From positions 1-16,417 of the forward strand of contig JAEOTQ010000180.1 of assembly GCA_016839785.1 (NCBI GenBank): DNA of 16,417 nt. Direction: 5' to 3'. The stretch's first letter is position 1, and every line of letters begins with the position of its first letter. This document shows positions 1,814 to 13,008 of this stretch, piece by piece. The position numbers and the translations under genes are program-made. The notes under the pieces were generated by a model. It had not been told where the DNA came from. It saw only the letters and a program-made list of their open reading frames with translations, and ran no database searches. The DNA comes from Candidatus Hodarchaeota archaeon (GTDB lineage Archaea; Asgardarchaeota; Heimdallarchaeia; Hodarchaeales; Hodarchaeaceae).

Positions 1814-3241
1814 TTAAAAGCGATTTGATACAAACTGAGTTGTCGCTTCCCTCTTTTGTTGTTTCTGAATAACGACCACTCGACTCCATTTTTGTGACAA
1901 TCTTTGGTTCATATCAGGAACTTGGGTTTCATTACGCACAATCCTACCAATAATAAAGTCAATAGGCAAGAAAAATGCTCTTCCTGCGCTACTGATTGCA
2001 AGATCTTGTAACAATGGACGTTCACCGGTGTTTTCAGAAATAACTTCCAAATTGAGTGCCATTTTCCCTAAGGTTTGGCCATAATAATTTTCCATTAGGA
2101 GTGTGTAAAGGAAGAACACCAGAGAGGAAGGACCAAGACTGAATAACCATTGGAAGGGACTAAAAACTCCAAATGACCACCAACTCCAATCACTAAAAGT
2201 AAAAAATAGGATAGAAGTGAAAGCACTTGTTATTGCACTAACTATGAAGAAATCAATCACCAAAGCCCAAAATCTTGGACCCCAGTCGGCTATAACGAGT
2301 TTTGTGCCACTAGGTTCAAAAGATTCTAACTTTGACGATTTTACCGCAGTATCAACTGATTTTCTATCTTCTGACAGCAGAATCTCTCCACATTGAGAGC
2401 AAAATGTACTGTCAGCTTCACTTATTGATCCACAGTTAGAACACTGAAGTTGATAGTTCGAAGGGGTTTTTACAATAGGTTCTACACGCGTTGTCATTGC
2501 TCCCTGATAATATCGTGTTCTTTTAGCTCCTCGAGGTTTAGATCGTAAGCCACTCCAGATGATAATGATCCCTAATAGTAAGAATAATCCTCCAAAAACG
2601 GTTAAAACCCAACCAATTACATTAATGATAGGAACACGTGCTCCAATGCTGAACGTAAGGTCAACTTTATTACCTAATCCCATATCAGCATTCATCATGA
2701 TTAATGTAAGAGTCCCTACCGTCAAATCTGAATAAGATGGAGACCAAATAAATTCTTTACCGCTTGATCCACCCAAACGCCAATTGGCATCAGTAGGAGC
2801 AGGAATTCTAGGTGTTGCGTCTGTAATAACAGGTTCCATGCTTATTGCAGAACCAGATTCCTCTGAATTAAATGGGAAACTATCTGAGAAGTCAAGATTA
2901 GTGATTCTTAGATAAGAAACATTCTCTAAGAATATATTAGCTTGCTCATCAGTTGTCAATCCCAAGAATACATCATCATTTATTTCCCCAAAAACATTTA
3001 ATTTGAGGGTAACAAAATCCGAAGGATCGATCTGTATACCGAGCTGGACGTTATCTAATGGAATATCCAATCTAACCGCAGTTACAGTATCGTCGATGAT
3101 ATGATAACTAGGTGATATGAAATAACCTTGATCATCCGCAAATACGGGTGTAACGAGTAGAACTGCAGATCCACCAAGAAAAATAGGAAATCCAATTAGA
3201 GCAATAATAATTCCAGCAACAAGTTTAATTGTACTTGCCAT
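1814..3241 (-). CDS. Membrane protein: extracytoplasmic domain + zinc ribbon + RDD domain
   Basis: Order of parts: N-terminal TM, ~170-aa external domain (DDQGYFISP...VFLGL...IMMNAD), second TM, CSNCG-x7-FCSQCG ribbon, then RDD motifs ADWGPRFWALVID, GQTLGKMALNLEV and QRL. Confidence 0.85.
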   Translation of the reverse strand: MASTIKLVAGIIIALIGFPIFLGGSAVLLVTPVFADDQGYFISPSYHIIDDTVTAVRLDIPLDNVQLGIQIDPSDFVTLKLNVFGEINDDVFLGLTTDEQANIFLENVSYLRITNLDFSDSFPFNSEESGSAISMEPVITDATPRIPAPTDANWRLGGSSGKEFIWSPSYSDLTVGTLTLIMMNADMGLGNKVDLTFSIGARVPIINVIGWVLTVFGGLFLLLGIIIIWSGLRSKPRGAKRTRYYQGAMTTRVEPIVKTPSNYQLQCSNCGSISEADSTFCSQCGEILLSEDRKSVDTAVKSSKLESFEPSGTKLVIADWGPRFWALVIDFFIVSAITSAFTSILFFTFSDWSWWSFGVFSPFQWLFSLGPSSLVFFLYTLLMENYYGQTLGKMALNLEVISENTGERPLLQDLAISSAGRAFFLPIDFIIGRIVRNETQVPDMNQRLSQKWSRVVVIQKQQKREATTQFVSNRF

Positions 3242-5127: not shown

Positions 5128-5973
5128 TTATTCCTTTCTTTTAGTTTCAAAATCGGCCTTAGCTTCAGGGTTAGTACTTGTACTTCCCCTTGAAATTATG
5201 TTATGTTTATGAATTGACTCCAATGAAGTTGTAGATGCTTCTATGTTGAGTTCCAATTCTTTAAACTCCTGAGCTGCGTTTATTAAAAGGTTTCGAGTTA
5301 CATCTTCAACAAAAAGCGGATTTTCATACATTCTGTTTACTACCCACTGTTCATCTTCTTGTTTTAATAAGGAAAAAGACGGTGCAGAAAAGCTCTGATC
5401 CAGAATTTTACTTATAATTTCCATATCAGGAATTTCCGAAGTGTTTCCTTTTAAGGTAAGCTCTGCATATGCTCTCTGAATATGAGTTCTATTTTGGGGA
5501 TTGTTTGCTAGAGCATGAGGACAAGCTGTGCTCCCCGACGTGCCCAATGAAAGTTCATGAGCTACTGATCCATTTTTCCAATATGTAACTAGTTGACCTT
5601 GGTAGTTTTCAAGTGATTTTCGCTTTGATACTGGTGTGAGCCGAGGAGTAAAGAATTCGAAGGACAAAGTAATCATTCCAGTCTCGAATGGATGACGGGT
5701 GAATAATTCCTGCAGAACTTGGACAGACATTTCCTCCAATGAGAAAAACGAGTCTGTTTTACTTGATAATATTTCTGAAATCGATTCAATAAACCTAGAC
5801 ATATGGACGCCCTTTTTGGAAGGGGGTAGATTTATTACAACTTTGATATTCGTAGTATATCTGTAAATCTTTGTTCCTCTGCTGATAGAAATTTGAGTTC
5901 GAAAATCAGTTATCCCTACCTCATCCAATGATAATAATACATTTGGAGGTTGATCTTGTGTTTCTAAATTCAT
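5128..5973 (-). CDS. mptA: GTP cyclohydrolase MptA / FolE2 family
   Basis: Family motifs VGI, KGVHMSRF, TACPHA, THIQR, NPLFVEDVTR and ESIHKHN. Confidence 0.92.
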   Translation of the reverse strand: MNLETQDQPPNVLLSLDEVGITDFRTQISISRGTKIYRYTTNIKVVINLPPSKKGVHMSRFIESISEILSSKTDSFFSLEEMSVQVLQELFTRHPFETGMITLSFEFFTPRLTPVSKRKSLENYQGQLVTYWKNGSVAHELSLGTSGSTACPHALANNPQNRTHIQRAYAELTLKGNTSEIPDMEIISKILDQSFSAPSFSLLKQEDEQWVVNRMYENPLFVEDVTRNLLINAAQEFKELELNIEASTTSLESIHKHNIISRGSTSTNPEAKADFETKRKE

Positions 5974-6170: not shown

Positions 6171-6290
6171 ATGAAGACAATTGGAGTTTTAGGCGTAGGA
6201 ATAATGGCGAATGGAATAGCTCTGGTATCTGCGGTCTCAAGTTACAAAGTGATTCTTCATGATATTAATTAAAAATTTATAAATCAAGGA
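6171..6290 (+). pseudogene. Remnant of 3-hydroxyacyl-CoA (3-hydroxybutyryl-CoA) dehydrogenase NAD-binding N-terminus
   Basis: AGGAG at 6156-6160, ATG 6171, translation MKTIGVLGVGIMANGIALVSAVSSYKVILHDIN*KFINQG. It matches the family pattern IGVLGAGxMGxGIAxxxAxxGYxVxLxD and continues plausibly past the in-frame TAA (6270-6272) before similarity ends. Confidence 0.8.
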
Positions 6291-6379: not shown

Positions 6380-8071
6380 ATGGACTTTCCAAAGGTAATT
6401 AGCATTTATTCGCGGACTTCAAGCGTTGGTAAACAAACCTTAGCCCTAAATGTATTCTTGTCATATATAAAGTCTAATCCTGGTACGAGAATACTGATTG
6501 TTGACTTTTCACTGACAGAAAAACTGCGATATAGCCTTTCAAAGTACGGAAAGTCACACTTTAATAGTACAGAGTTCATCAGCGAAATTTCAGATGATAT
6601 TCTAGTTAAAGAGTCTCTTCTCTTGCATGAAGAAGAAAGTCAAGGATCATTCGTTAGGGTACTCCCTTCTGCAGGCTGTCAACTAAATGAAAGTGGTCTA
6701 CCTGGCAAGATTAGACATCGTGTAAATTCTTTATTCTTCAAAGATATTATTGATATATTAGTATTTATTATTCCAACGACGCTAGAAGAAAAATCAATTT
6801 CGATGGCAACACTATTAGAAAGCGAAATGGTATGGTTCATCTCAACAGATAAATATCCTTCAATAAATTTAACCAGATCTTCTATACAAAACTTTTTTCA
6901 TTTCCTAACAGTGCCAACATTATTGATTGTGAACATGGTCCATCCCCCAATGATTTTGGAAAAAGTGGATATGTTCTTGAAGAAAATTGAAAATAAGGTA
7001 CGGGGGCCAGTTTTTTATGTCATTCCCTGGATTCAAGATATTCACGATTTTACAGATCTCGGGGTTTTCAGTTTAGAAAATCCAAATTCTAATGTGAATG
7101 GAATCTACCTTGATTTCATAGAAAAACTAAAGAGTGCGGTTGAAATTCGAAATCTTGGTTCAATCGAACCTAAATCAATAACTTCTCCCCAAGCATTGTT
7201 TATGACAGATAGATACTCAGGATCAACAATGTATTATCATTTCTTTGGTAAAGCTCAAGATGAAATGAAAAATCCCGCCTTGATTACTGCTGCATTAAGT
7301 AGTATCGCTCATATGATATCTGAAACGGCAGGAAAAAGTGGAGATCTTCTAGGTATTGATAATGGTAATTCATATATTGACTTTCAGTATGGAAAAAATA
7401 TTATAGGCATCCTTTACAGTACAAAGGAGGATAAAACACTTTCTAGCCTATTACTGACATTTACAACTCGCTTTGAAGATGAATTTCAAGAGACAATCCA
7501 AGATTTTTCGAATACTGGAAGAATTGGGGGATTTACAAAGGCAAAAGCTCTTGTTACCAAAGTCTTTGAGGATTGGATCTTTGAGATAAATACTGTGAAT
7601 CCTCAACTAAGGGAAAATATACTAAATTTTCAAGAGAATAGTCAGCAACTCCGAGTGGATCCTGAAGAAACGTTTCAAAATTATGTAACAGAAAATATTG
7701 CAGATATGAACATCCACAATTTACTCTATTACGAATTTACTACCTCTCATAATCAAAGACATGAATTTCTTCTGAATTTGGGAATAAACCCACGACAAAA
7801 GAAAATGATCATCGAAGAAGAAATAGGGAGCTCCCTTTGTTCTTGCACTGAACCACCAAAATATGTACAAATACAAGGTTTCGATGCTTTGGGTTTACTT
7901 GATCTCCCAGAAAAGCTACGCCCAACAGCTAGAGCGCTCTTTGCGTCTAAAATTCTCACTCCAGAATCAGCTTCAAAAATTACCTTTAGAGATCAAAATA
8001 CTGAGTTAGAAGTACTAGAGGAATTAACAAGACTGGGATATATGCGAAAAATCACACCGAATGATGAGTAA
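6380..8071 (+). CDS. Multidomain protein: degenerate MinD/ParA-like domain + longin-like domain + C-terminal winged helix
   Basis: KVISIYSRTSSVGKQTLALN (deviant Walker A), ILIVDF, LLIVNMV and VIPW...ENPNS follow MinD order. LFMTDRYSGSTMYYHFF...PALITAALSSI...FTTRFEDEF fits the longin pattern common in Asgard archaea. LTPESASKITFR...LEELTRLGYMRK is wHTH-like. ATG 6380 is preferred to GTG 6347. Confidence 0.75.
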   Translation: MDFPKVISIYSRTSSVGKQTLALNVFLSYIKSNPGTRILIVDFSLTEKLRYSLSKYGKSHFNSTEFISEISDDILVKESLLLHEEESQGSFVRVLPSAGCQLNESGLPGKIRHRVNSLFFKDIIDILVFIIPTTLEEKSISMATLLESEMVWFISTDKYPSINLTRSSIQNFFHFLTVPTLLIVNMVHPPMILEKVDMFLKKIENKVRGPVFYVIPWIQDIHDFTDLGVFSLENPNSNVNGIYLDFIEKLKSAVEIRNLGSIEPKSITSPQALFMTDRYSGSTMYYHFFGKAQDEMKNPALITAALSSIAHMISETAGKSGDLLGIDNGNSYIDFQYGKNIIGILYSTKEDKTLSSLLLTFTTRFEDEFQETIQDFSNTGRIGGFTKAKALVTKVFEDWIFEINTVNPQLRENILNFQENSQQLRVDPEETFQNYVTENIADMNIHNLLYYEFTTSHNQRHEFLLNLGINPRQKKMIIEEEIGSSLCSCTEPPKYVQIQGFDALGLLDLPEKLRPTARALFASKILTPESASKITFRDQNTELEVLEELTRLGYMRKITPNDE

Positions 8072-8084
8072 GCAGTGGAAGCAG

Positions 8085-8092
8085 TTTTTTTT
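8085..8092 (+). terminator. Oligo-T terminator
   Basis: T8 tract 13 nt after the 8071 stop. Confidence 0.5.
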
Positions 8093-8214
8093 ACGATATT
8101 ATTGTCATAAAGATTCTTTATCCGAGCTGCATCAGATGATATATATGTGCTAGAAGAATGGAGATTCTAAACTGATTTTAAACGGTCATACTTACAAAAA
8201 CGCGTACTAACGAG

Positions 8215-8961
8215 GTGAAAAAGAAGTTGGTTAGACAACACACGGACTACGCTAGTTTAAAGGTTGAAGATATGATTAAGGATCGACGAGTTTCCCCTCA
8301 GCAAGATTATGAAAAAATAATCAAGAATAAGAGCTTAGTTCAGGAAATTCTTGGTCGAGTTCGTGGAAGTGAAGCGAGTAAACCCGAAGTTGATTCGACG
8401 ATTAAATGGCTTGAAAAAGTGTCTAAATACGTTCCAATTGCATCAGATAAGCAATTAGAAGAAATTGTAAAAATTATGGTTTTGTTGAGTAAGGAAAGAG
8501 CCAAGTTTAATGAGCTTTATGATAAACCAGGCCTTGATTTGATGAAGCGTGTTCGAGAAGGAATGATTCGTTACATGGTTGTGTTAAGCGAACTTAGAGC
8601 CAAACGAAATGAGTTCTTAGAGCATTGGTTTACCGATGAATATTGGATCGGCGAATGGAGTCGAATCCTCCTTGATCTAGCACCTGATAATAATATGATA
8701 AAATATGGATTTGATGATATTAAGGCAAGGGACTTTTTATTCCTCTTGGAATTAGAATTAGCCGCTGCTGATGATGCTTCAAAAGTTGAAAAGCCTATGA
8801 TTCGTTTACAACCTATTGAGAACAAAGATTCGTTTTTGATTATCCCAACTGAGGTTGCAGCGGAAGATTATAGAATATATGTTGATCGAATATTTAAAGG
8901 AGAAATTACTTTCACACAATGGGTAGGTGATACCAGCATTTCGTTAAAAATACCCAGTTAA
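8215..8961 (+). CDS. Hypothetical, mostly alpha-helical soluble protein
   Basis: 248-aa ORF with no recognised family. The GTG at 8215 lies inside an SD-like GAGGTGA (8212-8218), so the true start may be the in-frame TTG at 8227. Confidence 0.75.
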   Translation: MKKKLVRQHTDYASLKVEDMIKDRRVSPQQDYEKIIKNKSLVQEILGRVRGSEASKPEVDSTIKWLEKVSKYVPIASDKQLEEIVKIMVLLSKERAKFNELYDKPGLDLMKRVREGMIRYMVVLSELRAKRNEFLEHWFTDEYWIGEWSRILLDLAPDNNMIKYGFDDIKARDFLFLLELELAAADDASKVEKPMIRLQPIENKDSFLIIPTEVAAEDYRIYVDRIFKGEITFTQWVGDTSISLKIPS

Positions 8962-8988
8962 GACTAAATTAAAAGAAAGGTGAAATGA

Positions 8989-9522
8989 ATGAGTGACGAT
9001 GTTCGTTTATGGAAAATTGTTTTAGCAGGCGATGGAGCTGTTGGAAAAACATCCCTACGCAAGCAATATTTAGGTTTAGGATTCGAAACTGACTATTTGA
9101 GTACGATGGGAGCAGATTTTGCCCTTCACGATACAACCGTTAATGATACCCATATAAGATGGCAAATATGGGATTTAGCTGGGCAACCAATGTTCAAAGA
9201 TGTCGTACAAGCTTATTATACGAAAATTTTTGGTGGTGTTATAGTTTATGATGTAACACGCCGTCAAACATTTGATAATGTAGAAAAGTGGTCAAATGAT
9301 ATGTGGAAAAACTCTGGACGTGACAGAAATGTCCCTATTGTCCTTCTTGCTAATAAAATAGACTTACGTGAAGAGGGTGCAGAAACTGTTTCGTCAGATG
9401 AGGGGAAAAAACTAGCAGAGAAGCTCGGAGTTCCATTTATTGAAACCAGTGCGAAATCGGGTGAAGGTGTAGACGCCGCATTTGAAACACTAGGAAAAAG
9501 TATAATGGATTATACCTCATAA
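8989..9522 (+). CDS. Rab-like small GTPase (Ras superfamily)
   Basis: G1 GDGAVGKT, G2 YLSTMGADF, G3 QIWDLAGQ, G4 NKID, G5 ETSAK, plus YY and IVYDVT Rab-type motifs. SD AGGTGA at 8978-8983. Confidence 0.95.
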   Translation: MSDDVRLWKIVLAGDGAVGKTSLRKQYLGLGFETDYLSTMGADFALHDTTVNDTHIRWQIWDLAGQPMFKDVVQAYYTKIFGGVIVYDVTRRQTFDNVEKWSNDMWKNSGRDRNVPIVLLANKIDLREEGAETVSSDEGKKLAEKLGVPFIETSAKSGEGVDAAFETLGKSIMDYTS

Positions 9523-9607
9523 GTGGTTCATTAATAATCTACCATACTCTACCATAAGACTGGAACGTATGAGAAGCAAGAGAGCTGCTTTTCCCAATCC
9601 CTCCTAA

Positions 9608-9614
9608 TTTTTTT
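9608..9614 (+). terminator. Oligo-T terminator of the GTPase transcript
   Basis: T7 tract in the gap between convergent genes. Confidence 0.4.
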
Positions 9615-9615
9615 C

Positions 9616-10065
9616 CTAACTCTGATTTGCGGGTCTGAAAACTACATTTCTAGACTTGTCAGGAGTAGTTCCATAAGTTTTAAGCAATAAGTTTCTCTGA
9701 TGAAGTTCATTAAGATATTGGCTGGTAGTACTTCTACTTCGGCCAATCCTATCTGCAACTTCCTGCGTAGTTAGAGGTCGGGGAGCTTCAGCAAGAACAT
9801 CATACGCCCTTTTTAACATTTCATCTTTATTGTCAAAGTTAACTTGGGGGGTAGCTCTTGGATCTTGTGAGTCTGAAACCGTTACAGTTGAAATTTCTTG
9901 ATGAGGAGATCCCTCTAAAATCGACAATCTTCGATCCATGATATTTATCTGATCACAAACCGAATTTAGGGAAGTAACAAGCGGTTCTAGTTTCTCTTCC
10001 AACTTCTTTTCTAGAAGAAGACTTATCTCTTCTAAGATGGTAGAATTTTTTTCTGAAGAATTCAT
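9616..10065 (-). CDS. Coiled-coil + winged helix-turn-helix protein (putative transcription regulator)
   Basis: N-terminal heptads (LEEKLEPLVTSLNSVCDQINIMDRRLSILE), a linker, then PLTTQEVADRIGRSRSTTSQYLNELHQRNLL. AGGAG SD at 10080-10076 supports ATG 10065 rather than 10197. Confidence 0.85.
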   Translation of the reverse strand: MNSSEKNSTILEEISLLLEKKLEEKLEPLVTSLNSVCDQINIMDRRLSILEGSPHQEISTVTVSDSQDPRATPQVNFDNKDEMLKRAYDVLAEAPRPLTTQEVADRIGRSRSTTSQYLNELHQRNLLLKTYGTTPDKSRNVVFRPANQS

Positions 10066-10452
10066 TAAGTTAATTCTCCTAATGAAGCTCAGATTCAATT
10101 CAAATAAAAGCATTGACCTTTCAGAACTGAGGAAATTATCCACCGGTAGGTGTTGTTGAAAAAAAGATGACAAAATCTGAAATTCTGTATCCCTCAATTC
10201 TAAAAAACACCATTCCCATATCAGAGAAATTTAGGTTCCCAGAAATTTAGTAAAAAATGAATTATTGATTGATACTGAACAGATTCACACATTCAAAAAA
10301 TGAATAGCTGAATCTTAAGACTTATTACCAATTAGAGCACATGCTTTGTTACTTTCTTCTAAAGATTTAAAATTACGTATTCATTCGAGACTACAACAAC
10401 TGAACTCATATTTTTAGTCTAAAAACTGAACAAATTTGGGACTAGATTAAAA

Positions 10453-10468
10453 GCAAAAGGTTTTAAGG
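10453..10468 (+). promoter_or_regulatory. Putative BRE + TATA box for the Roadblock operon
   Basis: Purine-rich GCAAAAGG followed by TTTTAAGG about 30 nt before ATG 10499, which has no SD. Consistent with a short-leader archaeal transcript. Confidence 0.45.
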
Positions 10469-10498
10469 AATGATTAGTAGATTGGATAATGATTAACA

Positions 10499-10849
10499 AT
10501 GTCCCAAGGTGCAGGTTATTTATCACATCAAGCGCTTGAAAAAGTAATAGAGTCCGTTGGGAAACACAAGGGAGTATATGGAGCAGTACTAAGCGATACT
10601 GATGGATTACCGTTACAATCGAGTCTTCCTGGTGAAGATACAGAGAGAGTTTCTGCTCATGTTGCTTCTCTTGTAGGAAAAGTAAAGGTTATTTCAAAAG
10701 AAATTTCTCAAGAGATTGCTCGAAGCATCCGACTTGAATTAGAAGTTGGTGACGTAGAGATTATACCTGATTATGATTCTGAGATTATTATCATAGCGCT
10801 AGTTAAACGAGAGAGTAGTCAAATGACACTCACTTCGAAAGATAAGTAA
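10499..10849 (+). CDS. Roadblock/LC7 domain protein
   Basis: GVYGAVLSDTDGLPLQS, a long second helix and a three-strand C-terminus (IRLEL..VEIIPD..IIIALV). Confidence 0.92.
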   Translation: MSQGAGYLSHQALEKVIESVGKHKGVYGAVLSDTDGLPLQSSLPGEDTERVSAHVASLVGKVKVISKEISQEIARSIRLELEVGDVEIIPDYDSEIIIIALVKRESSQMTLTSKDK

Positions 10850-10866
10850 AAATAGGTGAATGAAAA

Positions 10867-11184
10867 ATGTCCGGTGAAGAATACGTCATTCCTTCAGTGT
10901 TACAAAACACTATTAAAAGACTGGCCGCAAGACAAGGTGTGCGCGGAATTCTAGTTTGCGATGAAGATGGTTTACCTCTAAAAAGCAACTTACCTCAATC
11001 TGATGCAGAACGCGTCTCTGCTCATGTTGCTTCGCTTGTAAAGAAGGTACGAAGTGTCTCAGATGCATTAGATCATGGGAAATTGCAAAGTGTCTATGTT
11101 GAAATGCCCAAATCAGAGATTATCATTACTCCTGATGAAGCTGCAGGTTTCACAATCGTCGTTCTCAAAGATAGATCATATTAA
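10867..11184 (+). CDS. Roadblock/LC7 domain protein (dynein light chain roadblock-like)
   Basis: TIKRL..QGVRGILVCDEDGLPLKS...EIIITPD. SD AGGTGA at 10854-10859. Lies 17 nt after the previous paralogue. Confidence 0.93.
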   Translation: MSGEEYVIPSVLQNTIKRLAARQGVRGILVCDEDGLPLKSNLPQSDAERVSAHVASLVKKVRSVSDALDHGKLQSVYVEMPKSEIIITPDEAAGFTIVVLKDRSY

Positions 11185-11199
11185 ATCTTTGTGTTGTTG

Positions 11200-11215
11200 T
11201 TTTTTTTTGGTTTTT
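11200..11215 (+). terminator. Oligo-T terminator after the Roadblock pair
   Basis: T9-GG-T5 starting 16 nt after the stop. Confidence 0.55.
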
Positions 11216-11414
11216 AAGCAAAAATATCTGTTATTTAAAAATTTGTTTTCATTTTCTAGATTAGGGAAGGCTAAAATCGAAGAAATCGAAGAAATCTAAA
11301 CTCTACTGAAAATATCCTCAATATTGGTACATTTTTGAATACCACAAAACAATCCTTTTCTTGAGGATGTGAATAATACGAATATCAGTAAGATATCTGT
11401 ATATTCATACGAAG

Positions 11415-12278
11415 ATGGTTTTAATGGGTCAAAATGAGAATTCACCTGTAATGAAATATTGTGGGAATTGTGGTAAGGAATTAATTGCAAATGCAACCTT
11501 TTGTGCTTATTGCGGTGCTCCGATACCAAAAGCCGGAGATCTATTCCCTTCACAAGGTAGTACTCCATATGTCGTGATAAAAACACCTGAAATTACCCCT
11601 CGTCGACCGTTTTTAGACAATTTTCGTGGTGCACTCCTCACCCCTAAAATAAAAATGCCCCAAATCGCTTCTTCTCCGAATTATTCTCAACCATTATTAG
11701 TCAATTTAATCGTAGGCTTTCTCACGGTCATAGGACTTATGATCTTTTTCAGTAAGTATGAGATTATCTTTTCTGAATCATTTTTTTCTTTCCTTCCTAC
11801 TAATGAAACCGATATCACGGAGTTTATGGATCTTTACAAAGTATTATTGCCAATTTCCTCACCAATTTCAACCTTAATCAATTGGTTAATATTGAGTTTA
11901 CTTTTGTGGTTATTACATGCGATTTTTGCCTCCGATCTAAATTCAAATGCAAGAAATTTCAAAACAATGGCAACAATTGTAGGTTGGGCACAAATTCCTA
12001 TGATATTCAATCAGGTCATTACTATTATCTATAATCTATTCTTTCTCTCTAAAGGGGGTCAGGTGGTGTTTCGTTCAATAGGAGAAATGGAAATTAGTGC
12101 CCCAGGAGGAGGAACGGACGTTCCATTTGATACATTCCTTTTGGGAATTGAGATAATATTAATTCTGTGGAGTTTAGTGTTAATATACTACGCTATTAAA
12201 TCATTGGGATCATTTAAATCCAATCCAATTGTAATTTGTGCAATATTTGGAGTATTGAGCCTCCTACTACCAATCTGA
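11415..12278 (+). CDS. Zinc-ribbon + Yip1-domain membrane protein
   Basis: YCGNCG-x7-FCAYCG, then ALLTP...PLL, about five TM helices, FKTMATIVGWAQIP and LWSLVLIYYAIK, as in prokaryotic Yip1 domains. Exact start uncertain (11415, 11424 or 11451). Confidence 0.8.
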   Translation: MVLMGQNENSPVMKYCGNCGKELIANATFCAYCGAPIPKAGDLFPSQGSTPYVVIKTPEITPRRPFLDNFRGALLTPKIKMPQIASSPNYSQPLLVNLIVGFLTVIGLMIFFSKYEIIFSESFFSFLPTNETDITEFMDLYKVLLPISSPISTLINWLILSLLLWLLHAIFASDLNSNARNFKTMATIVGWAQIPMIFNQVITIIYNLFFLSKGGQVVFRSIGEMEISAPGGGTDVPFDTFLLGIEIILILWSLVLIYYAIKSLGSFKSNPIVICAIFGVLSLLLPI

Positions 12279-12294
12279 AATCACCCATAACAAT

Positions 12295-13008
12295 TTACTT
12301 TATACTACGGGGTTTATAGTGGATTTTCAAGTTTAACCAAATCATGTCTCCATATATTTTGTGATTCAGAATTTCGAAGAAAGGAGACTGGTCAAGAGAA
12401 TTCATTGCGTATGGCAAGGAAAAAAATGGTACTCCATTCCCTCCAAGAACTGGAGCGATTGAAACTTGAATCTCATCAATTAACTTTTCTGCGATCATAT
12501 TCCCGTTTAATTTACTTCCTCCTTCCAGCAATAGACTGTTTATCTTGTAATCCTTGTAGAGAATCATCATTAAATGCCTTAAATTCACTAATGGCCCCTC
12601 CCCGCATAATAATACTTCACATCCTTTTCTGAGGAATTCTTTCTTCTTGATGGACGAGCATTTCTTAGTGGTAGCAATAATTGTGGGAATATCTGGACGA
12701 AAAGTTATAATTCTAGAGTCAAGGGGGATCATTCCACTTGAAGTAACAACAATGCGTACGGGATTCTTGATGAGATGTCCTGACTCAAAATATTCAGGTT
12801 TTATTGTTAATTTTGAATCATCCGTTAAGATGGTTCCACTCCCTACCATGATGGCCTCATTTTCAGCTCTAAGATGATGGACTCGTCTCCAGTCTTCAGT
12901 ATTTGATAGATTATTATCTCCTGTTAAAGAAGCTATTTGACCATCAAGGGTTATTGCAGCAGATAACGTAATTTTTGGACGTTTTTCTCCATTATTATTC
13001 GAGACCAT
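12295..13008 (-). CDS. arfC: 2,5-diamino-6-(ribosylamino)-4(3H)-pyrimidinone 5'-phosphate reductase (stand-alone RibD C-terminal domain)
   Basis: RP-x-ITLSAAITLDGQI, VHHLRA..AIMVGSGTILTDD, PVRIVV, LLLEGGSKLN and IAPVLGG. No deaminase domain. Confidence 0.88.
   Translation of the reverse strand: MVSNNNGEKRPKITLSAAITLDGQIASLTGDNNLSNTEDWRRVHHLRAENEAIMVGSGTILTDDSKLTIKPEYFESGHLIKNPVRIVVTSSGMIPLDSRIITFRPDIPTIIATTKKCSSIKKKEFLRKGCEVLLCGEGPLVNLRHLMMILYKDYKINSLLLEGGSKLNGNMIAEKLIDEIQVSIAPVLGGNGVPFFSLPYAMNSLDQSPFFEILNHKIYGDMIWLNLKIHYKPRSIK

Follow-up and report, generated by a model that had tools for sequence, protein, structure and literature searches.

The locus considered here raises the question of whether seven neighbouring genes of an Asgard archaeon encode partners of one small GTPase or simply lie side by side. 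The genes are found in a 16,417-nt stretch of DNA (the window; about 35% G+C), which is contig C158 of a 4.04-Mb, 248-contig, 84.5%-complete Candidatus Hodarchaeota genome, and an Asgard origin is borne out by the homologues of one product, the orphan protein B248, whose source names point to Hodarchaeales or Heimdallarchaeota. Hodarchaeales have been placed closest to eukaryotes. An earlier interpretation, made from the letters of the window alone (the sequence-only reading), had proposed that the cluster may encode a full GTPase switch, and had named conserved gene order in related genomes and predicted interactions between the products as checks. This proposal is partly supported. The cluster is a real neighbourhood of genes from small-GTPase systems, specific to a single genus of Hodarchaeales. 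That the GTPase is acted on by products of this neighbourhood, at the minimum by the Roadblock pair, the large protein A574 or both, has, in our judgement, somewhat less than an even chance of being true.

The seven genes lie between folE2 (5128-5973, - strand) and a RibD_C reductase gene (12295-13008, -). Their reality is established by open reading frames (ORFs), Pfam and fold evidence, and the domain assignments other than that of a longin domain were verified with Pfam, Foldseek and profiles. In order, they encode A574 (6380-8071, +; 563 amino acids (aa) from the ATG at 6380, a start that matches the 99%-identical representative P0001), the orphan B248 (8215-8961, +), a Rab-like small GTPase of 177 aa (8989-9522, +), a winged-helix-turn-helix (wHTH) protein (9616-10197, -; 193 aa from a TTG, the true start being uncertain), Roadblock/LC7 proteins 1 (10499-10849, +; 116 aa) and 2 (10867-11184, +; 105 aa), and a polytopic membrane protein of 287 aa with a Zn-ribbon and a Yip1 domain (11415-12278, +). 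Oligo-T is a known archaeal termination signal. T-tracts announced by the sequence-only reading are present on the + strand as a T8 run 3' of A574 (8085-8092), which is likely an archaeal terminator, a T7 run in the convergent GTPase/wHTH gap (9608-9614) and a T9 run 3' of the Roadblock pair (11200-11208). At the same time, no T-run occurs in the 27-nt gap between the B248 and GTPase genes or in the 17-nt gap between the two Roadblock genes, and the locus therefore reads as five transcription units, namely A574, B248-GTPase, the opposite-strand wHTH gene, the Roadblock pair and the Yip1 gene, in agreement with the earlier view of a cluster of several units rather than one operon.

Conservation of the neighbourhood was followed through A574, of which full-length orthologues are present in 19 of the 21 other genomes of the genus; about 12.7 kb was taken around each, and 17 of the loci reach past A574. 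The GTPase, wHTH and Roadblock 1 genes were found in all 17 and Roadblock 2 in 16 of 16, and the order A574-(B248)-GTPase-wHTH-Roadblock-Roadblock is kept in every one of the 17 loci. The Yip1 gene is present in 14 of the 15 loci that reach that far, and additionally in L082, and B248 in 8 of 17. Amino acid identities within the genus are 81–99% for Roadblock 1, 84–96% for Roadblock 2, 30–73% for the Yip1 protein and 28–78% for the wHTH protein, whose conservation begins at about residue 19–70, and they do not fall below 54% for A574 and 75% for the GTPase. In locus L035 the left flank is broken: a full 3-hydroxyacyl-CoA dehydrogenase gene and a gene for a 512-aa membrane protein replace folE2 and TM472, and the break falls at the start of the HAD-A574 block, which is kept together with everything rightward of it. 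Two genomes, G002 and G007, were not used, as neither has a full-length A574 orthologue; G002 also lacks TM472, a Roadblock-2 orthologue and any GTPase above 52% identity, which may reflect a missing region rather than co-loss, and in G007 a stretch of N interrupts the locus within Roadblock 1. A further same-genus locus (L083, from the search with P0004), probably of the species of L029, was not counted, and the A574 relative P0003 was sought in metagenome and genome contigs, where nothing was found.

The only other family of the same GTDB order in the sample is the sister family f2, represented by two genomes, both fragmented, and three sub-links of the cluster recur there. First, a B248-like ORF (30% identity over 173 residues, blastp 1.9e-14) overlaps the start of a 55%-identical GTPase gene by 4 bp. 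Second, a Roadblock pair is preceded, at a distance of 90 nt, by a gene for a 256-aa protein whose N-terminus matches the profile of the A574 central, longin-like domain with 27.8 bits (hhalign E 1.7e-4, probability 49.5%). Third, in the other genome a polytopic membrane protein is encoded directly 3' of the Roadblock pair, and its hhalign probability against the Yip1 protein is 3.9%. The proposed check by gene order thus gave a divided answer: the order was found in 17 of 17 loci of the genus, whereas in the sister family three sub-links, and not the whole set, were recovered. The pair of B248-like and GTPase genes (L080; G022:C416:1-5964) is located directly upstream, and on the same strand, of genes for proteasome-alpha, SBDS, Rrp4 and RNase PH (Rrp41-like), which we take to be the conserved archaeal exosome-proteasome gene string.

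The GTPase itself matches PF00071 (Ras) with 155 bits against a cut-off of 21.6 (E 1.2e-45), and its G1–G5 motifs are intact, with GDGAVGKT, T39, DLAGQ, NKID and ETSAK invariant or nearly so in 20 orthologues. Its closest solved structure is the Thorarchaeota Rab 7ezb (2.5e-39), followed by Rab1A, Rab11A and Sec4 at about 1e-33, and the top 60 solved matches are all Rab, Ypt or Sec4 proteins, this being a ranking by similarity and not a phylogeny. The prenylation Cys of eukaryotic Rabs is absent from the last 20 residues, the protein ending in ...SIMDYTS. Relatives at E<=1e-54 are confined to 22 of 301 genomes of the phylum, all but one of them in the same order.

The product of the gene directly upstream, B248, has no Pfam match, and its 114 homologues are all unnamed "hypothetical" proteins, the close ones being from sources labelled Candidatus Hodarchaeales, Hodarchaeum or Heimdallarchaeota. 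Its AlphaFold2 (AF2) model (predicted local distance difference test (pLDDT) 88, predicted template modelling score (pTM) 0.86) is mostly helical with a small alpha/beta C-terminal part. A comparison of this fold with the Protein Data Bank (PDB) gave no match at E<=0.001, several MarR-type rows at E>1 not counting as evidence, and the Atlas gave no lead (best score 0.79); judging from the model, B248 stands for an orphan family of the Hodarchaeales group whose fold is predicted with confidence and resembles no solved structure. Each genome of the genus carries one to five copies. In the tree of the family, the base is not resolved, bootstrap values are unsettled and the branch leading to the sister-family copy is very long, and the tree shows only that in-locus copies are close to the nearest out-of-locus copies of genomes lacking B248 at the locus. 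In the prediction of interactions, the combination of GTPase and B248 gave a median ipSAE of 0.44 (runs of 0.49, 0.23 and 0.44) against 0.00 for the best of three controls, with the runs agreeing in at least 75% of contacts and a partner pLDDT of at least 80. Of 80 solved complexes, 58 reach the mark applied, as do 2 of 110 mismatched pairs; scores of 0.60 or less were obtained for only 7 of those 80 complexes and for both passing mismatches, so that the prediction gives weak support, a hint and no more, for a binding of B248 to the GTPase.

The upstream region bears on how B248 may be expressed. A promoter-like box, ATCAGATGATATATATGTG (8131-8149, +), lies 3' of A574 and precedes B248 or, in loci lacking B248, the GTPase gene; allowing up to 3 mismatches, its general form, ATCA(G/A)ATGATAT(A/T)TATGTG, was found at this position in 11 of the 17 loci of the genus, before B248 or GTPase alike, and in the whole 4.04-Mb genome ATCAGATGATATATATGTG has 35 matches at <=4 mismatches. 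Because the same box precedes either B248-GTPase or the GTPase gene alone, it argues that B248, where present, probably rides on the GTPase promoter. In the metatranscriptomic run X10, short contigs that are 95–99% alike fall on the GTPase, both Roadblocks and Yip1, and contigs bridge B248/GTPase (8929-9077) and Roadblock 1/Roadblock 2 (10771-10921); this bridging is a weak hint, because the contigs can neither prove transcription or a single transcript nor exclude DNA. A574 and the wHTH gene have no contigs in X10, which is uninformative, and runs X11 and X12 are probably DNA; other runs, whose word shares stayed below 0.2, were left out of any judgement on habitat.

A second conserved element points to the regulation of the Roadblock pair. 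The 301 nt that separate the wHTH and Roadblock genes contain a single block that aligns across the genus, TTAAAAGCAAAAGGTTTTAAG (10447-10467, +). This element, 21 nt long and ending 31 nt before the Roadblock ATG, overlaps a TATA-like TTTTAAG and is an inverted repeat of imperfect symmetry, TTAAAAGC-N4-GGTTTTAA. Its 17-nt core is exact in 13 of the 17 genus loci, carries one mismatch in one and two mismatches in two, and is missing from one (L037); it occurs once in the window and is unique in its own genome at <=1 mismatch. The simplest reading is that of a core promoter with a candidate operator for the divergently encoded wHTH protein, which has an HTH_IclR match (2.1e-8) at residues 133–171, in its C-terminal third. 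So sharp a conservation, together with a regulator that is an evident candidate, makes this cis-element of interest in its own right.

Both Roadblock proteins match PF03259 well above the cut-off of 23 bits (48.3 bits and E 8.2e-13 for protein 1; 63.9 bits and E 1.2e-17 for protein 2), and they are 39% identical to each other. The solved relatives of Roadblock 2 are 7f8f, deposited as a "Robl_LC7 domain-containing protein" (3e-10), and the dynein light chain roadblock (2.5e-9); the LAMTOR5 Pfam scores of the pair remain below the cut-off of 27 bits (23.8 and 26.1). Roadblock-2 relatives at about 35–42% identity are present in 243 of the 301 phylum genomes. The Yip1 protein matches PF04893 at residues 73–284 with 42 bits against a cut-off of 28.6 (E 1.2e-10), and its ribbon matches Zn_Ribbon_1 (8.4e-8). 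The sequence-only reading had noted that eukaryotic Yip1 proteins bind Rabs and had inferred a membrane receptor. Of 14 control prokaryote genomes, seven contain the Pfam family, namely those of E. coli, B. subtilis, Haloferax and four others, all of them without Rabs, and membership therefore does not imply Rab binding. Elsewhere in the own genome (C116:27570-29657, -), a small GTPase gene (193 aa, 41.7 bits to PF00071) stands between two Roadblock genes (164 and 144 aa), an arrangement resembling the MglB-MglA type; it adjoins glycyl-tRNA-synthetase-like and V-ATPase-B-like genes, both labelled by our own reading of the sequence.

The remaining protein, A574, shows a rare architecture, in which a MinD/ParA fold (residues ~1–255) is followed by a longin-like domain (~268–380), a helical region with H-x3-H ... 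C-x-C and a C-terminal wHTH-like end. It has no Pfam match over cut-off, and its family is rare, with 19 clusters at E<=0.001 among 1.84 billion representatives, five of them full-length. The AF2 model, built on 25 relatives (pLDDT 71.9), has a Rossmann-type N-domain; Foldseek of this model returned ParA/MinD/NifH structures (best 3ea0/1hyq, E 3.6e-9, TM to target 0.65), the family profile matches P. furiosus MinD 1g3q (9.2e-5) across residues 2–249, and PF01656 is touched by 10 of the 25 family members. Walker A reads SRTSSVGKQT (family consensus SRTPSCGKKT) versus SGKGGTGKTT in MinD, and Walker B reads FI(I/L)P versus IDCP; other residues stand in place of the signature Lys, of both Walker A Gly and of the Mg-binding Thr, and a hydrophobic one in place of the Walker B Asp. 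The SIMIBI P-loop fold is thus present, and A574 lacks the deviant Walker A motif xKGGxGK[ST] and the Walker B Asp of MinD/ParA ATPases. The name "pseudo-MinD", given to the protein in the sequence-only reading, is a fair one, and ATPase activity has probably been lost.

The longin assignment is based on predicted topology. Residues 270–379 are modelled in the longin order beta-beta-alpha-beta-beta-beta-alpha-alpha (DSSP: E270-277, E283-288, H299-316, E325-327, E332-337, E341-347, H352-368, H370-379; local pLDDT 43–90), whereas a curated profile match was not obtained. One distant A574 relative matches Sybindin below cut-off (E 0.0083), and the Atlas neighbours of the A574 centre, with scores of 0.85–0.86 under the lead line of 0.9, include "Roadblock/LAMTOR2" (Fuz_longin_1 on 22% of members) and "clathrin adaptor small chain". 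The centre may therefore be called longin-like on the strength of its predicted topology. A search for shorter stand-alone relatives of this domain found one fragment and nothing else. Between the longin-like domain and the wHTH-like end, E452, H457, H461, C487 and C489 are invariant in all 25 family members, including those at 24–28% identity, and because the two His and two Cys are among them, this stretch (residues 452–489; window about 7733–7846) is possibly a metal site.

Domains of the A574 type are not restricted to the locus. In the own genome, 16 ORFs carry one at E<=0.01, among them an ORF of 335 aa (C74:7773-8777) in which it is fused behind a Ras-like domain, and a polytopic, MFS-like membrane protein of ~560 aa (C76:20380-22086, +) of which it forms the cytosolic C-terminus. 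Three of the 16, the window included, are fused to a Ras gene or lie within 2 kb of one, which we judge not significant. In the sister family (L079), an A574-type domain ends a 1041-aa membrane protein encoded beside a TM472 homologue.

Do these proteins belong together, or was their order only inherited? Mere collinearity is a substantial possibility, well short of even: trafficking-like genes would have come to lie side by side by chance in the ancestor of the genus, close kinship would have kept their order, and the products would serve unrelated processes. A number of observations weigh against a joint function, many of them favouring this explanation. The metabolic flanks are equally collinear, as are orf97 and the lyase gene: every locus that extends far enough has RibD_C, and folE2 is present in 17 of 18. 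Conserved order alone therefore cannot separate function from recency. Within the cluster, B248 is optional, since it is absent from 9 of the 17 loci, where the nearest copies lie elsewhere in the genome, and the Yip1 gene is absent in L027. The seven genes are not together in the sister family, where the parts are dispersed over different contigs with other neighbours: an A574-like gene (28% identity) is followed by a radical-SAM-like ORF (a label from our reading of its Cys motif), the GTPase orthologue at 55% identity precedes the proteasome-alpha, SBDS, Rrp4 and RNase PH genes, the other orthologue (54%) stands beside tetratricopeptide repeat (TPR) and EamA genes, and Roadblock pairs (50–55%) are found on yet other contigs. 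GTPase duplicates (about 70%) in two genomes of the genus and a 53% relative in another family have no partners nearby.

The frequency of such neighbours in general points in the same direction. The own genome, of about 4 Mb, contains 58 Ras and 10 Roadblock matches, and 2 of 8 Roadblock loci are within 2 kb of a Ras match compared to 5.9% of random positions, a difference that is not significant (binomial P about 0.08); among 18 further loci with the best Roadblock homologues, a Ras-like match lies within about 6 kb in two and in none of the other 16. For out-of-locus B248 paralogues, 16 of 18 loci have no Ras within 5 kb. The neighbours of these paralogues, labelled by our own reading of the sequences, often look like parts of ATP-binding cassette (ABC) transporters: an FtsX-type-looking permease of ~900 aa adjoins the paralogue in 6 of the 18 loci (L061–L078), ABC-ATPase-like genes do so in 6 of 18, and large secreted substrate-binding-like proteins are also among them, which hints that the B248 family may serve transport systems too. 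No operator or motif shared among the five units was found, apart from 8- to 9-mers at the level expected by chance in AT-rich DNA. Curated longin families in Pfam match neither A574 nor any of the 25 family members, and the idea that the A574 centre is a Roadblock relative was rejected, hhalign against the Roadblock alignment giving a probability of 0.65% and no profile similarity. Moreover, the available text of Tran et al. 2024 (PMC10933270) describes the GTPase genes of MK-D1 as generally sharing no operons with Roadblock, longin or TRAPPC3 genes, which suits mere collinearity as well.

Several features are nevertheless poorly accommodated by inherited order. In a second family, three separate sub-links are found again and are arranged differently there; the left-flank break of L035 keeps the HAD-A574 block with the cluster; and the order survives both the divergence of A574 (to 54%), Yip1 (to 30%) and wHTH (to 28%) and the gain, loss or decay of genes inside the region (B248, Yip1, the dehydrogenase gene). 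It is between the recurring sub-links and the intact block on one side, and the collinear flanks, the dispersed parts and the optional B248 on the other, that the proposal of a full GTPase switch stands as partly supported.

The division into units, with T-tracts of their own and with distinct conserved promoter elements, brings in another explanation, which we regard as unlikely: the locus would hold two or three independent small modules without cross-talk, these being B248 with the GTPase, a wHTH-regulated Roadblock heterodimer with its membrane protein that serves another GTPase or has a non-GTPase role, and A574 as a positioning or DNA-binding protein derived from ParA/MinD. It would account for the separation of the sub-modules in the sister family and fits the MinD/ParA fold and C-terminal wHTH-like end of A574; the separate cluster on C116 also agrees with it, since Roadblocks in the own genome therefore do pair with other GTPases. 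Against independence, an A574-type longin-like protein is encoded directly upstream of a Roadblock pair in the sister family, another ORF of the genome joins a domain of the A574 type to a Ras-like one, and the modules are adjacent in all 17 loci of the genus.

We therefore prefer to describe the locus as a lineage-specific neighbourhood with two tighter sub-modules and looser companions; gene content, folds, motif loss, unit boundaries, genus conservation, cis-elements and the recurring sub-links are its observed basis, and contacts and activities are inferred throughout. In the first sub-module, the promoter box would drive the GTPase gene, with B248 between them in some genomes; the GTPase would be a normal, hydrolysis-competent switch, and B248, where present, would be co-transcribed with it and may bind it. 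In the second, the wHTH gene and the Roadblock pair are divergent, the Roadblocks would form a heterodimeric platform of the LC7/LAMTOR/MglB kind, and the inverted repeat in their promoter would likely be the operator of the wHTH protein. The Roadblock dimer could then act on the neighbouring Rab-like GTPase as a platform of the GTPase-activating protein (GAP) or guanine nucleotide exchange factor (GEF) type, A574, with its catalytically dead MinD fold, longin-like domain and wHTH, could be a scaffold or localiser, and the Zn-ribbon/Yip1 protein could offer a membrane site.

A more far-reaching form of this neighbourhood model would make the locus a prokaryotic forerunner of the Rab membrane-identity cycle, in which an unprenylated Rab-like GTPase is handled by B248 as a new partner family, is switched on a platform composed of an LC7-type Roadblock heterodimer and of A574, a longin-like scaffold with a recycled dead MinD domain, and docks at the Zn-ribbon/Yip1 protein, while the Roadblock arm is controlled through a wHTH repressor at 10447-10467. 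We consider this a long shot; if true, B248 and A574 would each represent a new class of small-GTPase regulator, restricted to the Hodarchaeales group. The locus is accordingly a good experimental handle rather than a demonstrated system. Small GTPases and Roadblock/longin proteins number in the dozens in Asgard genomes, and matching regulators to GTPases is hard since they are rarely encoded together, as the available text of Tran et al. 2024 (PMC10933270) states for MK-D1. The present locus nominates one Rab-like GTPase with a small, defined set of candidate partners, for which binding and GAP/GEF assays are practical; if the links fail, it will be a useful negative example of suggestive adjacency in paralogue-rich Asgard genomes.

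Some further features of the window deserve mention. The sequence-only reading had seen no metabolic gene in the cluster, which is correct for the seven genes, with the caveat that a remnant of a 3-hydroxyacyl-CoA dehydrogenase gene (40 codons, 6171-6290, +; 62% identical to residues 1–40) lies directly upstream of A574, between it and folE2. The same spot is occupied by a full-length gene in L022, L023 and L035, by the C-terminal 178 residues in L021 and by a 53-residue C-terminal stub in L037; a metabolic dehydrogenase gene thus appears to be decaying independently in several lineages at the edge of the cluster. An RDD-domain membrane protein (475 aa, 1814-3241, -) has the same N-terminal Zn-ribbon as the Yip1 protein, the tblastn cross-matches between the two being confined to the ribbon, and the combination of a Zn-ribbon with a membrane domain is a common prokaryotic design. 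Rfam and tRNA scans of the window gave no matches. A bacterial promoter/terminator scan was set aside as inapplicable to archaea, its counts being equal to those of shuffled sequences.

It remains to place the locus among known systems. In eukaryotes, longin-domain proteins form Rab GEF platforms (Mon1-Ccz1, TRAPP and DENN), and Yip1/Yif1 are Rab-interacting membrane proteins. A longin-like fold (on predicted topology), a Rab-like GTPase and a Yip1-domain membrane protein are likewise encoded together here. In contrast to eukaryotic Yip1/Yif1, the Yip1 Pfam family is also present in control prokaryotes that have no Rabs, and the GTPase lacks the prenylation Cys, so the Yip1-type insertion of prenylated Rabs cannot apply as such. 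With the SIMIBI ATPases MinD and ParA, A574 shares the fold of its N-terminal 255 residues, over which the profile aligns end to end with 1g3q; it differs from them in the missing catalytic motifs and in the fusion to a longin-like domain, an H-x3-H/C-x-C region and a wHTH-like end. Neither a MinD-longin fusion nor this cluster was the subject of any paper in a full-text literature search, which did not extend to supplements, where these families may be listed.

MglA-MglB is a bacterial and archaeal pair of a Ras-like GTPase and a Roadblock-dimer GAP. As in this pair and in Ragulator-Rag, a Roadblock dimer is encoded near a small GTPase here, and a dimeric platform would be the expected working form. 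Unlike MglA and Rag, the GTPase of the locus ranks with Rabs, has a DLAGQ motif with the catalytic Gln and carries no C-terminal Roadblock domain; as for the Roadblocks, their solved relatives are 7f8f and the dynein LC7 chains, and an opposite-strand regulator gene lies between their genes and that of the GTPase.

The nearest parallel is an operon predicted for most Asgard archaea in the accessible text of Liu et al. (bioRxiv 10.1101/2020.10.19.343400), in which a DENN gene stands with genes for a Rab-like GTPase and a LAMTOR1-like member of the Roadblock superfamily; most genes for eukaryotic signature proteins (ESPs) are said there not to lie in conserved neighbourhoods. A search for DENN in the seven locus proteins gave no Pfam match at E<=0.1, unlike in that operon; PF02141 (DENN) also had no match in the whole own genome, which is uninformative, since the controls were silent too. 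Köstlbacher et al. (PMC12962969) state, in the text available, that Roadblock domains are common in prokaryotes. As far as the operon is described in the text of Liu et al., the two arrangements are alike in placing a Rab-like, not Rag-like, GTPase by Roadblock-superfamily genes in an Asgard genome, with a proposed GEF-type platform. They differ in that two LC7-type Roadblocks here form their own unit instead of one LAMTOR1-like gene within the operon, and in that the companions are A574, with its dead MinD fold and longin-like domain, B248, the wHTH protein and the Yip1 protein, in one genus only. The locus is thus of a known kind, a GTPase gene beside Roadblock/longin-type genes, and is new in its members, its multi-unit layout and its narrow range.

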